The position numbers were made by a program, and so were the translations under genes. A DNA stretch of 32,572 nucleotides from NCBI GenBank assembly GCA_017615095.1, contig JAGAAT010000101.1, positions 1 to 32,572 of the forward strand, given 5' to 3'. Of the stretch, positions 1 through 10,664 are shown in pieces. The stretch comes from a bacterium (lineage in GTDB: Bacteria > UBP6 > UBA1177). The notes below the pieces were generated by a model. That model was not told the origin of the DNA. It did no database searches and saw only the letters and a list, made by a program, of their open reading frames with translations. Numbering within the stretch: position 1 is the stretch's first letter; each line of letters opens with the position of its first letter.

Positions 1-264
1 AACAAAATCAGGGTCCTGGCGCTGAAAAAACGCAAAAAGCTCCTGATCGAGGTAAGCAACGACGGCCCGGAGATCCCGGAGGAGTTCAGATCTTCGATTT
101 TCGAGCCATTCTACACGACTAGAAAGAACGGAAACGGTCTCGGGCTTGCGGTTTGCGAAAAGGTCGTGAGACTTTCCGGCGGAACAATAACCCTGAAGGA
201 GAGCACTCAGAATATCACCAGATTTTTGATCTCCTTCCCGCTCGAGGCTGTCGTTTCCCGCTAG
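1..264 (+). CDS. Sensor histidine kinase, C-terminal HATPase_c fragment (5'-partial)
   Basis: Own translation of frame 1: ...IEVSNDGPEIPEEFRSSIFEPFYTTRKNGNGLGLAVCEKVV...TRFLISFP..* (G1, F and G2 boxes). TAG at 262-264. Absent from the ORF track. Confidence 0.9.
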   Translation, partial: NKIRVLALKKRKKLLIEVSNDGPEIPEEFRSSIFEPFYTTRKNGNGLGLAVCEKVVRLSGGTITLKESTQNITRFLISFPLEAVVSR

Positions 265-309
265 TAAAAAATTTTTTTCCCTAAAAATTGCGAAGCTTTA
301 ACTCAAAAT

Positions 310-337
310 TTGACATAACGACTTTGTAAACTACTAT
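310..337 (+). promoter_or_regulatory. Putative sigma70 promoter of the kinase gene (TTGACA-N16-TACTAT)
   Basis: Perfect -35 at 310-315 and -10 at 332-337, upstream of ATG 373. Confidence 0.6.
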
Positions 338-372
338 ATGCAGAAGGACTGTTGTTTTTTTTGCGGTGCGAT

Positions 373-2292
373 ATGGAAGGTAAGCAGCTTACGACAAAAT
401 TTCCCTCTCTCTTCGGCAAATATTACCTGCTGGAGCTGGTAAACCTCGGTGGTATGGCCGAGATCTTCAAGGCAAAGATGTTCGGTGTCGAGGGCTTCGA
501 AAAGATCGTCGCGATCAAACGGATCCTGCCCGAAGTCGCAGTTGACGAAGAGTTCATCAAAATGTTTATCGATGAGGCCAAGATCGCCGTACGTCTGCAG
601 CACCCGAACATCGTCCAGATCTATGAGCTCGGAAACATCGACGGCTCCTACTTTATCGCGATGGAACTTGTCAACGGCAAGGATCTGAAGGTCATCCGCC
701 AGCGCCTGAAGAGAGTCGAGCTCCTGATGCCGGTCGAGCAGAGCGCATACATCATCTCTCAGGTCTGCGACGGTCTCGATTACGCACACCGCAAGACTGA
801 CGAGCACATGAATTCGCTCAACATCGTCCACCGTGATGTTTCGCCTCAAAATATCATCGTCTCCTACGAGGGAAACGTTAAGCTCATCGACTTCGGTATC
901 GCGAAGGCGCAGAGCAAATCCACAAAAACCCAGGCCGGGATGGTCAAGGGGAAGTTCAGCTATATGTCTCCCGAACAGGTCAACGGCAAGGTCCTGGACA
1001 GACGCAGCGATATCTTCTCGCTCGGCGTAGTCTTTTTCGAAATGCTCACCGGGAAGCGCCTTTTCCTCGGCAAGAGCGATGTCGAGACGCTTGAAAAGGT
1101 CCGTGCGGCCGAAGTCGTTCCGCCGAGTATGTTCAACAGCAGCGTTCCGCCGGAGATCGACAGGATCGTCATGAAGGCTCTGGCCCGCGAGCGCGAGGAC
1201 CGCTACCAGTGGGCGAGCGAATTTTCCGATGACCTGAAGAAGTTCAGCTACTCTTCGGACAAGCGTTTCTCGCGTCAGGACATGATGAATTTCATGAGCG
1301 AGTTCTTTGCCGACGAGCTTGAGGAGGAGACCGCAAAGCTCGAAAGCTATAAAAAGATCCCGAAGCCGCCCGAGGTCAAGACTCCTGCACCGGAATCCGC
1401 TCCGGCAGAAAGCAACACCTCTTCGATTTACGTCAACCGCAAGGCCAGCGATGCAAAGAAGGTCATGGCTATCCTGATCTCCGCGCTGGTCCTGATCGCT
1501 ATAACGATCACCGCTCTCGTTCTCGTGAAAAACCAGAAGGACGACACGGCGGCTCTGATAATCAACAGCGAGCCGCAGAAGACCATCGTCGTTCTGGACA
1601 AGGGGACAATGTACCAGAAACGCTGCGAGACTCCGTGCGTCATGGAGGGGCTTCTTCCCGGACAGCGCGAAATCGAGTTCTCACGCGAAGGCTACATCCC
1701 GCTGCGCGAAACGGTCATTCTCGGCAAGGGCGACAGGCTCGAAAAGTTCGTCAAGCTCTACAAGGTCGGCGAGCAGAAGACGATGATCACCGTCAAGTCC
1801 GATCCTGATAACGCGGTGCTTTACGTCAACGATAAAAAGGCGGCGTCGAACACTCCGACGGTCGTCAGCGATATCCCGGTCGGGATGGATGTCGTGGTCA
1901 GAGTCGAAAAACACGGCTACTATCCTTACGAGGAGAACATCGGAAAGGTCCCTGCGAACAGCAACAAGGAGCTGGAGATCATTCTTAAACCGATGAAAAA
2001 CGCTCCGGCGCCCCGCGAAAAGGATGTCAGGAAGGGCTCTTCAAAGTCTTCTGCGCAGGATAAGGCGCCTGTCGATTCATCTGAAACCGCATATATCACG
2101 ATCCAGGCGAATCCTTGGGCAAATGTATATCTCGACGGCAAGCTCATCGGCTCGACACCGATTTCAAAGTTCGCTCTGCCGGCAGGTTCGCACAAGATCC
2201 AGTTCAAGAATCCGAAATCGAAAATAGATAAGACTTTCCCCGTCGAACTGAAACCCGGCGAACATCACCGGATGGTTCAGAATTTCTACTGA
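373..2292 (+). CDS. Membrane Hanks-type Ser/Thr protein kinase with extracytoplasmic PEGA domains
   Basis: GGMAEIF, VAIK, HRDVSPQN, DFG and YMSPEQ motifs; TM segment (VMAILISALVLIAITITALVLV); PEGA-like repeats (INSEP, VKSDP, NPWANVYLDG..TP). Start placed at ATG 373. Confidence 0.93.
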   Translation: MEGKQLTTKFPSLFGKYYLLELVNLGGMAEIFKAKMFGVEGFEKIVAIKRILPEVAVDEEFIKMFIDEAKIAVRLQHPNIVQIYELGNIDGSYFIAMELVNGKDLKVIRQRLKRVELLMPVEQSAYIISQVCDGLDYAHRKTDEHMNSLNIVHRDVSPQNIIVSYEGNVKLIDFGIAKAQSKSTKTQAGMVKGKFSYMSPEQVNGKVLDRRSDIFSLGVVFFEMLTGKRLFLGKSDVETLEKVRAAEVVPPSMFNSSVPPEIDRIVMKALAREREDRYQWASEFSDDLKKFSYSSDKRFSRQDMMNFMSEFFADELEEETAKLESYKKIPKPPEVKTPAPESAPAESNTSSIYVNRKASDAKKVMAILISALVLIAITITALVLVKNQKDDTAALIINSEPQKTIVVLDKGTMYQKRCETPCVMEGLLPGQREIEFSREGYIPLRETVILGKGDRLEKFVKLYKVGEQKTMITVKSDPDNAVLYVNDKKAASNTPTVVSDIPVGMDVVVRVEKHGYYPYEENIGKVPANSNKELEIILKPMKNAPAPREKDVRKGSSKSSAQDKAPVDSSETAYITIQANPWANVYLDGKLIGSTPISKFALPAGSHKIQFKNPKSKIDKTFPVELKPGEHHRMVQNFY

Positions 2293-2410
2293 TTTTAAGC
2301 TATTGCTTTTTCCCCGTTTGAAGTACAATTACCTGTAATTTTTTTTTAAGGCGCACTGCGTTTTGAAAAAATTGCGGTCACAATTACTGACTTTTCTGAT
2401 GGAGGTTCTC

Positions 2411-3781
2411 ATGAAAAGAAACATTTTTAAGCTGATGGCACTTGCATTTGTCTTTTTTCTGATGGTCAGCTGCGGCGGCTCTTCGAACGGCGACAATACG
2501 GACACAGGCGATTCCGGTGACACAACGGCTGATACGGGCGATACGACCGAGCCTGCGGATACCGGCGACACCGATGAGGGCAAGTGGGAAGCGAAGTACA
2601 AAAAGGCTGACGGACACGCTGATAAAGTTTCAAAGGATGTTGTCAAGGCGAACAACGATCTCGGAATGAAGCTCTTCAGCGCTCTTGCATCCGAAGAACC
2701 TGGCAAAAATATGATGATTTCACCGCTTTCGATCTCGATCGCTATGGCGATGGTCACAAACGGCGCATCCGGCGAAAACCTTGACGAAATGAAAAACGTC
2801 CTCGGCTTCGGCGATATGGATTTTTCCGAAATAAACGCTCAATTCGCCGATCTTGTCCAGAGTCTGGTCGAAGCTGACAAAGATCTGGTCCTTTCGATCG
2901 CGGATTCCGTATGGATGGATGACGAACTGGAACCGGATGTAAAGCAGGATTTCATTGATGTTCTCACGGAATTTTATGACGCGGCGTTTTTCACCGAAGA
3001 TTTCCAGGATGAGGCGACTGTCGGCAAGATAAATTCGTGGGTCTCCGAAAAAACTAACGGAAAAATCGAGAAAGTCATCGAAAAAATCGGTCCGCAGGCA
3101 GTCATGTATCTCATCAACGCGATCTATTTCAAGGCTGCGTGGACGACCTCTTTCGACAAAGAGAGCACTTATGAAGGCGCTTTCATCCTTTCCGACGGAA
3201 CGGAAGGCAAGGCAGACTACATGGCATTTGCTCCCGATCAGGAGGTCCCCGAGTTTAAAAATTATTCGACGGACTGGAGCGATGAAAACGGTTATTCAGT
3301 TGTCAGAATCCCCTACGGGCGTGATGTCTTTGCGTTTTACGGCATAGTTCCGAATCCTGGCAACAAAACAAATATAGACGAATTCATTAAGAAAATCGCT
3401 GAAAACGGTATTGATTCCTATTTTTCGCAGCTCGAAAAGGGCGGATTCCATGTCCAGCTCCCGAAGTTCAAGTTCGCTTACGACAAATCGCTTGTCGATG
3501 TCTTCAAGAGTTTGGGAATGGAAAAGGCTTTTGCTGAAGGAGGTCTTACGAATATCGCCGATGAACCGCACTCTCTGTTCATTTCAGATATTTTCCACAA
3601 GACATTTGTCGAAGTGAACGAAGAGGGTACCGAAGCGGCGGCGGTGACAGTTGTCGAAGTCGGTGAAAAAGCCGAGCCTTCAGGATTTTTTGCTAACCGT
3701 CCGTTCGTATTCGTGATCCGCGACGACAGAACGGGATCGGTCCTTTTCGTCGGAAAAGTAGAAAATCCGAAAGCTGAATAG
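2411..3781 (+). CDS. Serpin lipoprotein 1 (predicted P1-P1' Lys-Ala)
   Basis: SD GGAGG, lipobox MVSC, acidic DTGD tether, NMMISPLSI, NAIYFKAAW, LPKF, hinge EEGTEAAA, NRPFVFVI. Confidence 0.95.
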   Translation: MKRNIFKLMALAFVFFLMVSCGGSSNGDNTDTGDSGDTTADTGDTTEPADTGDTDEGKWEAKYKKADGHADKVSKDVVKANNDLGMKLFSALASEEPGKNMMISPLSISIAMAMVTNGASGENLDEMKNVLGFGDMDFSEINAQFADLVQSLVEADKDLVLSIADSVWMDDELEPDVKQDFIDVLTEFYDAAFFTEDFQDEATVGKINSWVSEKTNGKIEKVIEKIGPQAVMYLINAIYFKAAWTTSFDKESTYEGAFILSDGTEGKADYMAFAPDQEVPEFKNYSTDWSDENGYSVVRIPYGRDVFAFYGIVPNPGNKTNIDEFIKKIAENGIDSYFSQLEKGGFHVQLPKFKFAYDKSLVDVFKSLGMEKAFAEGGLTNIADEPHSLFISDIFHKTFVEVNEEGTEAAAVTVVEVGEKAEPSGFFANRPFVFVIRDDRTGSVLFVGKVENPKAE

Positions 3782-3813
3782 GTGCTTCTGCAAACCTTCT
3801 AACGGAGATCAAA

Positions 3814-5334
3814 ATGAAAAAATCTATGATCCTTTTCACGGTTTTTACACTCTTTTTCCTCGTTTCGTGCGGCGGCGGCAGTAATGAAAACGGCGGCGAT
3901 ACTGCACCGGACGGAGACACAACTGACACAGGCGATTCCGGTGACACAACGGCTGATACCGGCGATACTGCACCGGACGGCGATACCGGAGAGACGGAAA
4001 CGGATGCCGATGCAACTGACACCGGTGATATCGGACCGGATGCGGATGAGGGCGATACCGAAGATCCGGCGTTGATACAGGCTTATTCAGTCGCCGATGC
4101 ACACGCAGAGGCTGTTTCAGCCGAGATCGTCAAGGCAAATACGAGGCTAGGGCTCAACATTTTTGAAAAGCTCGCGGTAGGAAAACACGAAAACATTATG
4201 ATTTCACCTCTTTCGATTTCGATCGCTATGGTGATGGCGGCGAACGGCACCGAAAACGAGTCTCTCGCCGAGATGAAGGAGGTCCTCGGGTACGGTGAGA
4301 TGGAGCTTCCGGCGGTGAACGAACAGTTCAGGGAGCTTATCGCAAGCCTTGTTTCTGCCGATAAGGATCTCGTTCTTGAGATCGCAAACTCGATCTGGCT
4401 CGACGATGCTATTGCGGATGAAATCAAAGAGGAGTTCATCGCTGTTCTTGAAGATAGTTACGACGCTGAGCTTTTCGAGGCAGATTTCGGCGATGATGCT
4501 ACAGTTGAGCTCATCAACTCCTGGGTTGCGGAAAAGACGCACGGCAAGATCGACAAAATTATTGACGGGATCGGTCCGGAGAGTGTCATGCACCTTATCA
4601 ACGCGGTCTACTTCAAGGCTACGTGGAGTGTAGCGTTCGACAAGGATGCGACTTTTAACAGAGAGTTCATTCTATCAGACGGAACCAAAACGGATGCCGA
4701 TTATATGGGCTTTTTTTCTAACGAGAAAAACATGGGCATAACATACGGGAACTATGTAATTTCGGGTCAGAATGTCGCCAGTGTCAGGATCCCATACGGC
4801 AGAGACGCGTTTGCCTTTTATGCGTATGTAGCCAATCCAGATTATGGCACTCCTGAGGACGAAGTCATCGGCGTTGACGAGATCATCGGCAAAATTGTTG
4901 AAAAGGGGCTGGAATGGTATCTCTCCTTCGCAAAACACATAGATTACACTATTCGTCTTCCCAAGTTCAAATTCGAGTATAATAAGTCTCTTAAGAATGT
5001 TTTTGAATCTCTCGGGCTTGAGAAACTTTTCGGAAGCGGAGGCATGTCGGCAGCTGCTCCTTCACTTTATGTGTCGGGAATCACTCATAAAACCTATATC
5101 GACGTGAACGAAGAGGGCACCGAAGCTGCGGCTGTCACGGATATAGACGTCGGTGATACCGGAGACGAAGGTCCCAACAGGTTTCAGGGTTTCTACGGCA
5201 AAAGACCATTCTTCTTCTTTATCCGCGACGAGAGGAACGGCACGATCCTTTTCATGGGCAAGGTCGAAAGACCCGAATACGAAGAGTGGTTCCTGAATTT
5301 CCGGTTTCGATCCAAGGTCAGAAATTTCTATTGA
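3814..5334 (+). CDS. Serpin lipoprotein 2 (predicted P1-P1' Thr-Gly), with a C-terminal read-through extension
   Basis: Lipobox LVSC, long acidic tether, ISPLSI, NAVYFKATW, EEGTEAAA, RPFFFFI. Confidence 0.95.
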   Translation: MKKSMILFTVFTLFFLVSCGGGSNENGGDTAPDGDTTDTGDSGDTTADTGDTAPDGDTGETETDADATDTGDIGPDADEGDTEDPALIQAYSVADAHAEAVSAEIVKANTRLGLNIFEKLAVGKHENIMISPLSISIAMVMAANGTENESLAEMKEVLGYGEMELPAVNEQFRELIASLVSADKDLVLEIANSIWLDDAIADEIKEEFIAVLEDSYDAELFEADFGDDATVELINSWVAEKTHGKIDKIIDGIGPESVMHLINAVYFKATWSVAFDKDATFNREFILSDGTKTDADYMGFFSNEKNMGITYGNYVISGQNVASVRIPYGRDAFAFYAYVANPDYGTPEDEVIGVDEIIGKIVEKGLEWYLSFAKHIDYTIRLPKFKFEYNKSLKNVFESLGLEKLFGSGGMSAAAPSLYVSGITHKTYIDVNEEGTEAAAVTDIDVGDTGDEGPNRFQGFYGKRPFFFFIRDERNGTILFMGKVERPEYEEWFLNFRFRSKVRNFY

Positions 5335-5520
5335 TTTTTCCTTTACTATTTTTTTTTTTTTTCGTTAAAGTACGATCATTGCTGTTTTTTCCGGGCATAT
5401 CGTGTCCGAATAAATCAGCGGTTATTTACTGACTTTTCTGATGGAGGTTGTTATGAAAAGAGACATTTTTAAGCTTCTGGCTGCTGCACTTGTCCTCTTT
5501 CTGATGGCTGCCTGCGGAGG
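5316..5520 (+). repeat. Diverged direct repeat of 2274-2480 (kinase 3' tail, intergenic region and serpin-1 leader)
   Basis: ggttcagaatttctactgatttt (2274) vs ggtcagaaatttctattgatttt (5316); exact 24-mer ttactgacttttctgatggaggtt at 2384-2407 and 5426-5449; MKRNIFKL vs MKRDIFKL. Confidence 0.85.
5349..5362. repeat. T14 homopolymer upstream of serpin 3
   Basis: Counted directly; lies between TTTACT (5342-5347) and TACGAT (5371-5376). Confidence 0.9.
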
Positions 5521-6910
5521 CGGTGACAAAAATGACGAGGATGCCCAGCCGGACGGAGACACAACGGACAGCGGTACTGTCGAGCCGACCGACACGGGCG
5601 ATACTGCGCCTGACGGTGATACCGGCGATACCGATCCTGACGGTGACATCGGAGACACGGAGACGGACGATGATAACGGTGACACCGAAGATCCTGCGGT
5701 GATGCAGGCTTATTCTGTTGCCGATGCACACGCAGAGGCTGTTTCAGCCGAGATCGTTGAGGCTAACACGAGGCTCGGGCTCAACATTTTTGAAAAACTC
5801 GCGGTCGGGAAACACGAAAACATTATGATCTCTCCGCTTTCGATTTCGATCGCTATGGCGATGGCGGCGAACGGCACCGAAAACGAATCTCTTGCCGAGA
5901 TGAAGGAGGTGCTCGGCTACGGCGAGATGGATCTTCCGACGGTGAACGAGCAGTTCAGAGAGCTTATCGCGAGCCTTGTTTCTGCGGATAAGGATCTCGT
6001 TCTTGAGGTCGCAAACTCGATCTGGGTCGATGAGATATTTTCCGAGGAGATCAGGGATGAGTTCATCACTGTTCTTGAGGAGAGTTACGACGCAGAACTT
6101 TTCAAGGCTGATTTCGGCGATGACGAGACGGTAGAACTCATCAACTCCTGGGTTGCGGAAAAGACGCACGACAAGATCGACAAGATCATCGATTCTATCG
6201 GTCCGCAGACTGTTATGCACCTCATCAACGCGGTTTACTTCAAGGCTGCGTGGAGTATCGCTTTCGACAAGGAGGCGACCTTTACCGCTAAGTTCATTCT
6301 TGCGGACGGAACATTAACGGATGCCGAATACATGGGCTTCAAGGAGTACAGCAGCCTGAACGGAGTTAAGTACGGCGACTATGTCATCTCGGATCAGGAT
6401 GTCGCCGGTGTCAGGATCCCATACGGCAGAGACGCATTCGCCTTTTATGCTTATGTCGCAAATCCATCTTTTGAGGCAGCGATCGACGGAGTTCTGACGG
6501 TTGACGAGATCATCAGCAATTTCGTAAAAAAGGGGAACTTCACCGGCTATATGCCCTCTGCTGCGCCGAATTATTACAAGATCCATCTCCCCAAGTTCAA
6601 ATTTGAGTATAAAGAGTCTCTCGTGGAGATTTTTAAATCTCTCGGGGTCGAGAAACTCTTTGAAGACGGCGGAATGTCGGCTGCTCATTCGGCTCTATAT
6701 GTTTCTGGAATCACTCACAAAACCTATATCGACGTGAACGAAGAGGGAACAGAGGCGTCGGCTGTCACGGATATAGAAGCCGATGTCGGCGGTCCTGAGA
6801 ATTTCCCCGGCTTCTACGGCAGAAGACCATTCTTCTTCTTCATCCGCGACGAGAGGAACGGCACGATACTCTTCATGGGCAAGGTCGAAAAGCCCGAATA
6901 CGAGGAGTAA
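5453..6910 (+). CDS. Serpin lipoprotein 3 (predicted P1-P1' Gly-Gly)
   Basis: SD GGAGG, lipobox MAAC, acidic tether, hinge EEGTEASA; body closely similar to serpin 2. Confidence 0.95.
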   Translation: MKRDIFKLLAAALVLFLMAACGGGDKNDEDAQPDGDTTDSGTVEPTDTGDTAPDGDTGDTDPDGDIGDTETDDDNGDTEDPAVMQAYSVADAHAEAVSAEIVEANTRLGLNIFEKLAVGKHENIMISPLSISIAMAMAANGTENESLAEMKEVLGYGEMDLPTVNEQFRELIASLVSADKDLVLEVANSIWVDEIFSEEIRDEFITVLEESYDAELFKADFGDDETVELINSWVAEKTHDKIDKIIDSIGPQTVMHLINAVYFKAAWSIAFDKEATFTAKFILADGTLTDAEYMGFKEYSSLNGVKYGDYVISDQDVAGVRIPYGRDAFAFYAYVANPSFEAAIDGVLTVDEIISNFVKKGNFTGYMPSAAPNYYKIHLPKFKFEYKESLVEIFKSLGVEKLFEDGGMSAAHSALYVSGITHKTYIDVNEEGTEASAVTDIEADVGGPENFPGFYGRRPFFFFIRDERNGTILFMGKVEKPEYEE

Positions 6911-6922
6911 TTTCCCAAATCA

Positions 6923-9058
6923 TTAATTTTCAAGCTTCAAACCGATCCACGGGGTGATCCCCGGAGTCCCGTACTCGACCGAATAGGCGTAACTGTCGTT
7001 ATCCAGCATGTTGTCGATTTTTGCGAAGATCGTGACGAATTTGTGCACTTTCCAGGAGATCGCAAAGTTCAGCAGGACGAACTGGTCGACTTCGACGATG
7101 TACGGTGTTTTCGGATAGTTGTAGACCTCGTCGTTACGGACTCCGACATAGTCAAGACCAAGGAAAATATTTAATATTTTCTTGTAATTATAGTTTAGCT
7201 CCGCGCTGAATGTGTGCTTCGGACGGCGAAGCGGCGTGGTTTTGCTCTTGTACTTCCTGCCCTGATACTCCACGACTTTGTATTCGTTCAGCTTGAAGAT
7301 GAAGGTGTAGGCGGATTTGAAGCTCAGCCCCCAGAATGGTTTGGTCTGGAGCGAAAATTCGAGGCCGTGGTTTTCGATTCTGTAGTGATTTGAATACTTT
7401 CCGCTTTTGTCCAGGTCGATGTTGTTTATCTTGAGTTCATAAAAATAGCCGGCTTCAAGAAGGATTTTCCGCTTTACCAGATACTGCTGGATGACGCCGT
7501 CGAAGCCGTACGCGATCTCGTAAAGCAGCTCGTTGTAGAGGTCGGAATAGCGGCTGAAGCGCTGAAAAAGCGTCGGAGCTTTTGAGGCTCTCGCGAACCT
7601 TGCCTTGAACCCGAGTTCTATCGGCGTTTCATAGGCGATACCGGCCGAAAAGAGCGGTTCCGCCAGTTTTTTTGTCTTTGAAGGCAGCAGCTCGTCGGTG
7701 AGGCTGTCGAGGAGCGAGACCTGATAAAAGTTGGTCTGAAGCCTGAAACCGGCGTTTATCTCCAGTTTTTTCACTGGTTTGAAAATGTTCATCAGGTATA
7801 GCCCGAGTGCGAAGTCGGGGTTCGGCTTGAAGCTAAGGTCATACTTCCTGCCGCTTGAATAGTCTTCGTAATCGGCGATCCCGGCGGCAAGCTCGAACTT
7901 TATTCCCGCAAGGATCTCGTACCATTCGAGCGGCTTTAACGAGTTGTCCCAATCAAGGTTGAGAGTCAGCGCCTTGTAGAGGCTGTTCATGTCGCCGGTC
8001 ACCTTGCCCGCGTCTGCGGGATCGTCGTCGTAAAGCGCGTTGAGGTAGACCGACGCATTGAACTTGAGGTTCCAGAGCTTGTCGAAAAGGTCGGAATCTA
8101 TGCCGGTTTTGGCGGTAAGTGTCCTCGAACGCAGGATGCGGTTCGGGTCGTCGAGCCCGAGCCCGGGACCGTCGTCGATTTCGTATTTGCCGATGTCGGT
8201 GCGCAAAATCAGGTCCCACGTCGTCGCATCGCTGATGTCGACACCGCCCCGGAAGTAGATCTTTCCCTTGATCACGCCGTCGTTGTCGGGCGTTTTCGTG
8301 AAGAGGTTCTCCTTGACGCCGTGGTAGGAATCGGCTTCGGAAATGCCTTCGGTGTAGAAAAACGATCCTCCGCCGGAGTAGAAAAAACGCTCTTTCGAGC
8401 CGCGCACCGAGGCGTTGACGTTGAAGGTGTCCGGGACGAGCCGGTCGCTGCTCATGTCGAGAATGCCCGTCGAAATCGAGCTCACGAATTTAGGCTTTCC
8501 CGCCCCCTTTTTCGTGTGGATATCGATGACTCCGGCAATCGCGCCGCTACCGAAAAGAACGGGCTGAGGTCCCTTGAGAAGCTCTATCTTCGCAATGTCT
8601 TCTGGACTCTGGGCAAGATCCGCTGCGCCGTTCGGACTCACCGGGTTACGCATCGGAACACCGTCGACCAGCACGAGCACGTCCGCGCTCCGGAAGCCGC
8701 GCAGAAAGACATACTGCGACTGTCCGGTGTTGCCGCTGCCGTCGACGTAGACTCCCGCCATCTCCTTGATAGCGTCGCCCGTCGTGGTCGAAATTTTGTT
8801 TTCGATCTCGTTCGCGCTGATGGAAGCCTTTGCGGATGCGCCGTCCTGACTTTTGTTTTTTTTGCCGCGGACAGTGATCTCGTTTGCCGGATCTTTAGCC
8901 GGTTTCTTTTTTGTTTCAGCCTGCGTCTCAGTTTCGGTTTTCGGCTCTTCCTGCTGATTGGAAGTTGCCTCTTCCGAAACAGCCTGCTCTTCGGCGAACA
9001 TTGGGAAAAACAATAGTAAAATAAGATAGATGAGCGATTTTTTTAAGAGCCTCAGCAT
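6923..9058 (-). CDS. btuB: TonB-dependent outer-membrane receptor, probable cobalamin transporter (BtuB-like)
   Basis: Signal peptide, plug motifs (LRGFRSADVLVLVDGVP; IELLKGPQPVLFGSGAIAGVI), barrel C-terminus (IDNMLDNDSY...PG). ATG 9058 follows SD GAGGAGG. Cobalamin riboswitch upstream supports the substrate call. Confidence 0.8.
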   Translation of the reverse strand: MLRLLKKSLIYLILLLFFPMFAEEQAVSEEATSNQQEEPKTETETQAETKKKPAKDPANEITVRGKKNKSQDGASAKASISANEIENKISTTTGDAIKEMAGVYVDGSGNTGQSQYVFLRGFRSADVLVLVDGVPMRNPVSPNGAADLAQSPEDIAKIELLKGPQPVLFGSGAIAGVIDIHTKKGAGKPKFVSSISTGILDMSSDRLVPDTFNVNASVRGSKERFFYSGGGSFFYTEGISEADSYHGVKENLFTKTPDNDGVIKGKIYFRGGVDISDATTWDLILRTDIGKYEIDDGPGLGLDDPNRILRSRTLTAKTGIDSDLFDKLWNLKFNASVYLNALYDDDPADAGKVTGDMNSLYKALTLNLDWDNSLKPLEWYEILAGIKFELAAGIADYEDYSSGRKYDLSFKPNPDFALGLYLMNIFKPVKKLEINAGFRLQTNFYQVSLLDSLTDELLPSKTKKLAEPLFSAGIAYETPIELGFKARFARASKAPTLFQRFSRYSDLYNELLYEIAYGFDGVIQQYLVKRKILLEAGYFYELKINNIDLDKSGKYSNHYRIENHGLEFSLQTKPFWGLSFKSAYTFIFKLNEYKVVEYQGRKYKSKTTPLRRPKHTFSAELNYNYKKILNIFLGLDYVGVRNDEVYNYPKTPYIVEVDQFVLLNFAISWKVHKFVTIFAKIDNMLDNDSYAYSVEYGTPGITPWIGLKLEN

Positions 9059-9060
9059 TG

Positions 9061-9173
9061 GCAAATATCCCTCCTCGGGGCTGTTTGCTGCGTGCGATGT
9101 ATCCGGCTTGCGTACAGCTTTACGGTTGCGGGACAGCATCGGAATCCCACCGATTTCCATCGTCTTCACGCAA
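9061..9173 (-). ncRNA. Cobalamin riboswitch, short class II-type, with SD-containing hairpin
   Basis: Minus strand: TGCGTG..CGATGGAAATCGGTGGGATTCCGATGCTGTCCCGCAACCGTAA..AAGCCGGATACATCGCACGCA. Conserved core and B12 box; closing helices TGCGTG/CACGCA and CGATG/CATCG; downstream GCAAA..CCC-CGAGGA-GGG..TTTGC hairpin. Confidence 0.88.
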
Positions 9174-9179
9174 TGCCGC

Positions 9180-9207
9180 AAGTTAAGTTTTAGAACGGCA
9201 ATGTCAA
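9180..9207 (-). promoter_or_regulatory. Putative promoter of the riboswitch-btuB transcript (TTGACA-N16-TAACTT)
   Basis: Perfect -35; the implied start site falls just 5' of the riboswitch. Confidence 0.6.
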
Positions 9208-9289
9208 GCCCGCCCGCCGAAAAAGCAAAAAATATTTGTCAAAGCAGAGTTCAAAATTTAAGATTGGCGGATTTCTAGAGGGGTAGGAT

Positions 9290-10597
9290 TTGAAGGCTGA
9301 GTTATTCATAGGTCTCAGGTATCTTTGGAACACGAGACGGACGCGCTTTCTGAGCGTGATCACGCTGATTTCCGTCCTCGGGATAGCTATCGGTGTCGCG
9401 GCGATAATTTCTGTTCAGTCGATCATGGACGGGCTTCAGAACAAGATGAAGGCGGCGGTCCTCGGCGCGAAGACTCACATCAGGATCGAGCATGAGGCGG
9501 GTACAGTCTCTGACTATGAAAACGCGATCGCAAAAATATCAGACAACACGGAGTTTTACGGAGTCACGCCGATAATTTCACGCGATGTCATCGTCTCCTT
9601 CGGCAGCGAGCTGACCGGTGCGGTCGTCAACGGGATCGACATCGCAAGCGCCGGAAGCGCCCTGAAGCTCCCGGAACAGATCACGAAAGGGTCGCTGAAG
9701 TGCGTCGAAAATCCTGCGGATTGTCCTGAAATCGTTGAAAAACGGGAGGCGCTCGACAACTTTTTGAGAAAGCCCGGAGCGGGGGAGAAACGTTACGGCG
9801 ATATGCCTGGGATAGCGATCGGGAGCGAAATGGCGAAGTATTACGCCCTCGACATCGGCGATAAGATCAAAATAATCTCACCGACAGGCGGAAAGCTGAA
9901 CTCGCTCGGTCTGCCGACGCCGCTTGTGAAGACCTTCATCGTGTCGGCGGTCTTCTTCACCACCTATTACGAGTACGATTTCAGCTACGCATACATCACA
10001 CTTGACGCTGCGAAGGAGTTTTTCTCGACCGGAGGTGCGGTCGACCACATCGGGGTCAGGCTGAAGGACGTCTACGCGATCGAACCAGCTGAAAACTTTA
10101 TCAGATCGAAGCTCGGCGACGGCTTCAAAACCAAAAACTGGCGGGACATGAACAAGCCGCTTTTCTCTGCACTCGAGATGGAAAAGGTCCTCTGGTTCCT
10201 GATCCTCGGATTCATCGCACTCGTCGCCTCATTCAACGTCATCTCCGCACTCGTGATGCTCGTTATCGGCAAAAAGAGCGAGATCGCCGTCCTGCGGGCG
10301 ATGGGCTTCACCTCGCGCTCCGTTATGAAAATTTTTATGTTCGACGGACTGACGATCGGGATGATCGGAACGACTCTCGGCACGATCCTTGGAGTTGCCG
10401 CCTCCTGCCTGCTGAACGGTCTGCCGCTCGGAGACGCACAGGATGTTTACTACATCGAGACACTGCCGGTTGACCTCGCTCCGTCGACGCTCGTCATCGC
10501 GATCGCCGGATCACTTCTGCTTTCACTTGCCGCTACGATATATCCAGGTCTCCGCGCCGCCAATCTCAAACCTGTTGATGCACTGAGACACGAGTGA
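9290..10597 (+). CDS. lolE: Lipoprotein-releasing ABC transporter permease LolC/E family
   Basis: ELFIGLRYL...ISVLGIAIGVAAII, MacB-like periplasmic domain, WRDMNKPLFSALEMEK, EIAVLRAMG, YYIETLPV, PVDALRHE; TTG start. Confidence 0.88.
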   Translation: MKAELFIGLRYLWNTRRTRFLSVITLISVLGIAIGVAAIISVQSIMDGLQNKMKAAVLGAKTHIRIEHEAGTVSDYENAIAKISDNTEFYGVTPIISRDVIVSFGSELTGAVVNGIDIASAGSALKLPEQITKGSLKCVENPADCPEIVEKREALDNFLRKPGAGEKRYGDMPGIAIGSEMAKYYALDIGDKIKIISPTGGKLNSLGLPTPLVKTFIVSAVFFTTYYEYDFSYAYITLDAAKEFFSTGGAVDHIGVRLKDVYAIEPAENFIRSKLGDGFKTKNWRDMNKPLFSALEMEKVLWFLILGFIALVASFNVISALVMLVIGKKSEIAVLRAMGFTSRSVMKIFMFDGLTIGMIGTTLGTILGVAASCLLNGLPLGDAQDVYYIETLPVDLAPSTLVIAIAGSLLLSLAATIYPGLRAANLKPVDALRHE

Positions 10598-10664
10598 TTT
10601 TTTAATTTAAGCTTGACTGTCCGTGTTGGAGTAAACTTCAGTATCAGGACACAGCATTATCGTA

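Follow-up and report, generated by a model that had tools for sequence, protein, structure and literature searches.

The window, a stretch of 32,572 nucleotides (nt) that forms contig C27 of the 1.69-Mb metagenome-assembled bacterial genome G000 (GTDB lineage Bacteria; UBP6; UBA1177; assembly GCA_017615095.1), carries three consecutive serpin genes (S1, S2 and S3) downstream of a Ser/Thr protein kinase gene (K). With a probability of about 0.5, we read S3 as a genuine old mosaic, in which a duplication set the tail of K directly behind an S2-type serpin's 3' flank, and an S1-type upstream region and leader came to stand before an S2-type tether and body by recombination at the leader end, a process that recurs in this lineage. 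Four haplotypes of the locus were compared: the window itself (G000), genome G005, and the metagenome contigs L061 and L062. The leaders of S1 and S2 are denoted L1 and L2, the spacer between K and S1 is IG1, and its copy before S3 is IG'. Coordinates are collected in Table 1.

The duplication is recorded upstream of S3, where positions 5316-5521 repeat the last codons of K, a degraded intergenic region, an exact 24-mer and the S1 signal peptide. The original prediction, made from the sequence of the window, had claimed such a copy of the kinase tail, intergenic region and signal peptide at 5316-5520, and the comparisons bore it out. For the tail, whose source is the end of K (..VQNFY*), alignment of TCAG-AATTTCTACTGATTTT with TCAGAAATTTCTATTGATTTT at 5317-5337 gave a score reached by 1 of 2000 dinucleotide shuffles, and the copy was seen in all four haplotypes. 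The intergenic segments 2293-2383 and 5335-5425 are collinear, with 51-60% identity and gaps, and IG' is 94-98% identical among the four haplotypes. The 24-mer TTACTGACTTTTCTGATGGAGGTT, which holds the ribosome-binding GGAGG, is found exactly at 2384 and 5426, and these were its only matches in the genome even with five mismatches allowed. The longer segment 2384-2479 matches 5426-5521 with 83% identity over 96 nt and an expect value (E) of 4.6e-23; this was its sole match in the genome, the next best having an E of 0.006. The repeat, with two genomic copies and no others, is therefore not an element placed before many unrelated genes. The upstream copy may carry a promoter; a scan for sigma-70 promoters gave 6 sites over 2200-7000, where 4.5 were expected, and none of them lay in either intergenic region.

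S3 has one nearest relative for its leader and another for its body, as a comparison proposed with the original prediction had anticipated. The leader is 83-86% identical to that of S1 and 46-56% to that of S2, whereas the body is 79% identical to that of S2 and about 60% to that of S1. Alignment by blastn matched 5549-6785 to 3907-5155 with 79.4% identity over 1265 nt, and the S3 protein as a whole is 74% identical to S2 and 52% to S1. In an informative-site test with both the G000 and L061 copies taken as parents, 27 of the 33 sites up to 5512 were S1-type, and sites from 5533/5549 on were S2-type. This puts the switch at codon 5513, the Cys of the lipobox, or at most about 12 codons beyond it, not in the DTGD repeats and not at DTEDPA, and the acidic tether of S3 is S2-type over its whole length. 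Directly after the lipobox, a ..PDGDTTD.. block is common to S3 and S2 and absent from S1, while TGCGG (TGCGGnGGC at the lipobox) is common to all three genes. The match of S3 to S2 was thus correctly predicted, but its start was placed too far downstream, at DTEDPA, when the tether itself is already S2-type. The proposal that the acidic DTGD tethers act as recombination joints holds in part. The S1 and S2 tethers do exchange sequence, sharing a 61-nt tract at 90% identity; however, the S3 joint lies at the lipobox or tether start, and other recombinants at the locus cross in the serpin body or the ribosome-binding region, so the tethers are not the privileged joint.

Since the window comes from a genome that is 72.6% complete and divided into 202 contigs, an assembler might have joined repeats chimerically at the junction. 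We consider such an artefact extremely improbable. The copies are 79-83% identical, having diverged too far to collapse, and the same junction recurs elsewhere. L061, an independent 46-kb metagenome contig, is collinear with window positions 4-10598 (89.8% identity over 10.6 kb) and has the same three serpins. G005, the closest genome (K 97% identical in amino acids), and L062 carry the same junction of kinase tail and intergenic region. In addition, the passage from the S2 end through the tail copy, the spacer and the S3 leader into the tether is bridged by contigs from runs of three studies (X2 and X3, 5229-5749; X7, 5260-5632; X1, 5293-5749). Misassembly, which the prediction had named as a possible flaw, is contradicted by these independent copies.

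The S3 junction is old, and the event predates the split of the four haplotypes, among which the synonymous divergence (dS) of K is 0.27-0.54. Between the S2 and S3 bodies, the proportion of synonymous differences (pS) is 0.41-0.44 and dS is 0.60-0.66; for the leader, pS is 0.21-0.30, from only 13-14 synonymous sites. The identity of IG1 and IG' equals the synonymous-site identity of the S2 and S3 bodies, which makes the copied upstream region and the copied body about equally old. Between G000 and L061, dS is 0.42 for the S3 body, 0.24 for S1 and 0.18 for S2. The S3 leader and tether start (5453-5700) are 100% identical in G000, L061 and L062; this identity, despite the high dS of the S3 body, points to mosaic exchange between strains.

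In the history that we propose, a non-homologous tandem duplication would have brought the last codons of K up against the sequence that flanks an S2-type serpin on its 3' side, and the resulting second unit of kinase tail, intergenic region, 24-mer with ribosome-binding site and S1-type leader would then drive an S2-type tether and body. The joint between leader and cargo would have formed where neighbouring S1- and S2-type copies recombined at their leader ends, either by the deletion originally predicted or by an equivalent unequal exchange between haplotypes. Crossovers would fall in short blocks conserved among lipoprotein genes, namely the ribosome-binding region and leader start, the lipobox and tether start, and conserved blocks of the body, and would reassort upstream region, leader, tether and cargo. 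Judging from its serpin and lipobox sequences, the S3 product would be exported and, once its Cys is lipidated, stay attached by an acidic tether as its neighbours do, with a reactive-centre loop of its own.

Several observations weigh against this history. The intergenic homology is weak when taken alone (76 of 2000 shuffles reach its score). The S1 leader is unlike the leaders of its 11 relatives in its body clade. A tree of the C-terminal half joins S3 to single-copy serpins of G008 and G011 and not to S2 (support 94/98). Neither a four-gene intermediate nor an undivided K-S1-S2 haplotype was found among the four haplotypes. G005 and L062 are themselves metagenome assemblies, and chimeric assembly might in principle account for their hybrid genes. 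Of the predicted series of events, in which a [kinase tail-S1-S2] unit is duplicated and a deletion between DTGD tethers follows, the duplication junction with its kinase tail stands in all four haplotypes; the joint in the tethers does not, and the four haplotypes include no four-gene allele. Duplication followed by deletion is only one of two about equally economical histories.

The second of these runs in reverse, and we entertain it tentatively. An S3-type gene, with the kinase-proximal upstream region, an L1-type leader and an S2/S3-type tether and body, would be the original neighbour of K; a plain tandem duplication of [kinase tail .. gene] would have followed, and part of a serpin array, made up of the tether and body of S1, the spacer and the leader of S2, would later have recombined into copy 1 between lipobox and tether, so that S1 and S2 are chimeric and S3 is collinear. 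This needs two events in place of three, and copy 1 without 2480-3885 is a unit collinear with 5316-6910. Body trees place S1 within clade T1, where the remaining members have leaders of the MEIKMKKFMILF type; S1, with a leader that is not T1-type, is thus itself a mosaic, which fits the reverse history equally well. Counterparts of the S1-S2 spacer and of the S2 leader are found at junctions within the serpin arrays of other species (82-88% nt identity in the leader), and L062 has an uninterrupted S2/S3-type gene right after the full kinase. L062 does not, however, preserve a state from before the insertion: its intergenic region is 57-58% identical to IG1, as distant as IG', and its gene C is a recent hybrid. 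The reverse history also requires that the same cell held a further S2-type donor, carried on an array. Further evidence comes from the leaders of the separate body clade that S2 and S3 form with the single-copy genes of G008 and G011, within which five leader types are found. Deeper relatives of this clade (P0011, P0012, P0014-P0022) have array-type leaders like that of S2, so the S2 leader is probably native and the S3 leader a replacement; with array-type leaders apparently ancestral, an L1-type leader on such a body would be derived. The evidence on history is accordingly split, the non-native leader of S1 fitting the reverse order and the array-type ancestral leader of the S2/S3 clade fitting duplication and deletion.

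It is unlikely, in our estimate, that S2 and S3 are old paralogues, or that S3 was imported from a locus like that of G008 or G011, and that their similarity and the S1-like leader arose through later patchy gene conversion between neighbours. The C-terminal tree described above would fit such a course, as would the patchy identity of S2 and S3 (88-93% in alignment columns 300-600 versus 46-75% in columns 1080-1350) and their uneven dS (0.44-0.48 in the N-terminal half, 0.73-0.81 in the C-terminal half). Tether tracts are common to S1 and S2, the S2 tether start of L061 matches that of S1, and replacement of a leader is demonstrated in gene B of G005. Conversion alone, however, does not account for the kinase-tail copy and the collinear intergenic remnant, which demand a duplication junction, and the low-identity patches are also the regions most variable with respect to S1. 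The C-terminal tree leans against a recent copy from S2 to S3, and dS points the opposite way: in that half it is lower between S2 and S3 than to G008 and G011 (1.3-1.4, with differing G+C content at third codon positions), and S3 is separated from the G008 and G011 genes by a dS of 1.25-1.5, about twice that to S2. Forcing S2 and S3 together in the C-terminal half costs 18 log-likelihood units, and the recent-duplication topology was not rejected (approximately unbiased test, p 0.14); the N-terminal half weakly favours it. In a whole-body tree built to date the S2/S3 split, support was too low (40/20) to place it.

The locus keeps recombining. G005 has two serpins here, genes A and B, in place of three. 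Gene A is 97-100% identical first to S1 and then to S2 of L061; a single switch from S1 to S2 in the body fits 514 of 527 informative sites, and the crossover falls within a 13-mer common to both (equivalent to window positions 2815-2829 and 4299-4313). Gene B is an S3 orthologue with IG' but with a different leader and tether, designated L3-T*, from the ribosome-binding site on. The same module heads the first serpin of L062, right after the full kinase and a third type of spacer, and the leader-plus-tether module L3-T* thus occupies slot 1 in one haplotype and slot 3 in another. This first serpin of L062, gene C, is 93-100% like gene B of G005 and then about 100% identical to S2 of L061 from alignment column about 840-850. 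For deletion variants within samples, the contigs aligned to the window showed a single weak joint (3162 to 3392, side 23, in one run), which was disregarded. Database proteins show further combinations, with L3 on an S2-type body (P0004, P0008), the S3 leader with another S3-type C-terminal half (P0003), and full-length L3-T* genes (P0005, P0006). Downstream of K in 14 other genomes of the genus, this array was found in one (G005), a single serpin of another clade in three and no serpin in ten. Synteny of an S1-type array with the receptor or the kinase was found in none of five other genomes within the stretches fetched. In other species of the genus (G004:C22, G007:C5 and G008:C35), kinase and serpin tandem array are not adjacent but separated by about 20 kb of one contig, and the order of the array members differs between the genomes.

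Leaders are also shared elsewhere in G000. Among its 62 candidate acidic-tether lipoproteins, the median nt identity of leaders is 0.62, the 99th percentile is 0.75, and the top pairs reach 0.82-0.93. A serpin on contig C2 (C2:2689-4074) has a leader, MTKKLFLTLV.., that is 89-92% identical in nt to the leaders of C110:52-1047 and C118:1075-1935, two genes with no body homology to the C2 serpin and no Pfam family. Between C2 and C110 the similarity takes in about 55 nt of upstream sequence as well and stops at the lipobox; between C2 and C118 it covers leader and tether start, and the upstream regions are not shared. A second group with a common leader comprises genes on C11 and C114 (Lcl_C domain) and C200 (weak VWA match). 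In G011, a serpin of the S2/S3 type bears the leader of another serpin clade (85% nt identity), switching back 9-11 codons after the Cys. These cases support the view that leaders move between cargoes in this lineage and that S3 is one instance of a recurrent process. The general lipoprotein shuffling once predicted is upheld to that extent, for leaders on differing cargoes, without the tethers as its special joint. It is possible, and here we speculate, that the acidic-tether lipoproteins form a modular system, in which the ribosome-binding/leader-start and lipobox/tether-start blocks would be standing joints through which unrelated cargoes (serpins, Lcl_C-domain proteins and proteins of no known family) repeatedly receive another upstream region, anchor and tether, with fast strain-level diversification of surface inhibitors. 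Serpins of different clades and species are preceded by an upstream block TTTTGAGTCAGAAAAAT..AACTAAATA, seen at L095 (G011:C56) and before a T1 serpin in L100 (G007:C5); it may be a common regulatory site.

Hybrid genes and copy-number differences are typical of tandem arrays, where they arise by unequal crossing-over and gene conversion. The present locus is similar in its hybrids at conserved blocks, as in the 13-mer of G005 gene A, and in the differing copy number of its haplotypes. It differs in that the S3 joint lies at a functional module boundary, between leader and mature protein, and is paired with a non-homologous junction in an unrelated neighbour gene. Erp/Elp lipoprotein genes of Borrelia burgdorferi also reportedly share their upstream region, recombination being the cause that Akins et al. 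are said to have proposed in 1999. The family is named for its shared leader peptide ('OspE/F-like leader peptide') and split into subfamilies (PMC12242104). As at the present locus, lipoprotein genes share a leader while their mature proteins differ. The Erp/Elp genes belong to prophage plasmids of a spirochaete and have non-serpin cargo, whereas the genes described here are chromosomal, in an uncultured gut-associated lineage, and one event is dated by its duplication junction, which retains a relic of the kinase tail. For the vmp genes of relapsing-fever Borrelia, an upstream homology sequence of 61-62 bp is described, which takes in the transcription start together with 26 bp at the beginning of the lipoprotein coding region and is a proposed upstream crossover point for cargo replacement (PMC6011951). 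The block compares with the 24-mer and leader start, where leader replacement in gene B of G005 begins. The vmp system is programmed, high-frequency antigenic variation from silent cassettes; here, in contrast, events are rare or sporadic and genes complete. All copies have their own upstream regions, and no shared downstream element was found.

Among bacterial serpins (PF00079), those of this locus are distinguished by lipobox anchoring, long acidic tethers and variable arrays. Miropin of Tannerella is reportedly another surface-attached bacterial serpin. Literature searches yielded no publication that deals with arrays of lipoprotein serpins or with the serpins of this lineage. S3 offers a dated, sequence-level example of a new, predicted surface-anchored protease inhibitor built from a neighbour's upstream region and export-and-anchor leader, at a locus whose structure differs between closely related strains. 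If reassortment of leader and cargo is general in the lineage, lipoprotein gene trees could not be read from whole-gene alignments, and strain differences in surface serpins would come from recombination and not point mutation. Such surface serpins plausibly act on proteases of the host or of competitors in the animal gut.

Table 1. Features of the kinase-serpin locus, in window coordinates
Feature	Position	Strand	Basis
K, Ser/Thr protein kinase with PEGA domains	352..2292	+	Pfam Pkinase E 2.5e-41, PEGA E 2.8e-22
IG1, K-S1 intergenic region, including the 24-mer with ribosome-binding GGAGG at 2384-2407	2293..2410	+	Sequence comparison
S1: leader L1 (MKRNIFKLMALAFVFFLMVSC), acidic tether, clade T1 body	2411..3781	+	Pfam Serpin E 3.5e-100
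Short S1-S2 spacer	3782..3813	+	Aligned; homologous to junctions inside the serpin tandem arrays of congeneric species
S2: array-type leader L2, tether T2, clade S23 body	3814..5334	+	Pfam Serpin E 7.2e-85
S2 C-terminal read-through, 15 residues	5287-5334	+	Comparison with three related haplotypes
29 nt from S2 end (EYEE) to kinase-tail copy	5287..5315	+	No significant source found in S3 downstream flank
Copy of last K codons and stop, duplication junction	5316..5337	+	1/2000 shuffles reached score
IG', degraded copy of K-S1 intergenic region	5338..5425	+	51-60% identity to IG1
24-mer and ribosome-binding site, then S1-type signal peptide of S3 (start codon 5453)	5426..5512	+	83% to 2384-2479
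Switch zone: lipobox Cys-Gly-Gly and first tether codons	5513..5548	+	Informative sites turn from S1-type to S2-type
S3 tether and serpin body, S2-type	5549..6910	+	79.4% nt to 3907-5155
S3, whole gene	5453..6910	+	Pfam Serpin E 5.1e-85
Convergent TonB-dependent receptor	6923..9181	-	Pfam Plug E 6.7e-23

Orthologues of K were found in 42 of the 61 genomes searched. The TonB-dependent receptor is the right-hand limit of the array in every full haplotype and is collinear in G005 and L061. A remnant of the receptor 3' end at 5287-5316, considered as the right edge of the duplicated unit, was rejected as not significant (1155 of 2000 shuffles reached its score).

All three serpins match the profile PF00079 over its full length (S1: profile positions 2-370 of 370). 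By pattern, each has a signal peptide leading to a lipobox Cys (LMVSC, FLVSC and LMAAC, each followed by G), with an acidic D/T/G-rich tether after the Cys, and each has the hinge-like motif EEGTEA[AS]AVT. The ancestral stop of S2 is lost in G000, where TGG stands in place of the TAG of G005, L061 and L062; the resulting extension of 15 residues runs up to the stop within the kinase-tail copy. In both sequence and length, the reactive-centre-loop regions (3596-3700, 5086-5200 and 6716-6820) diverge strongly among the three serpins, an indication that their protease targets differ.

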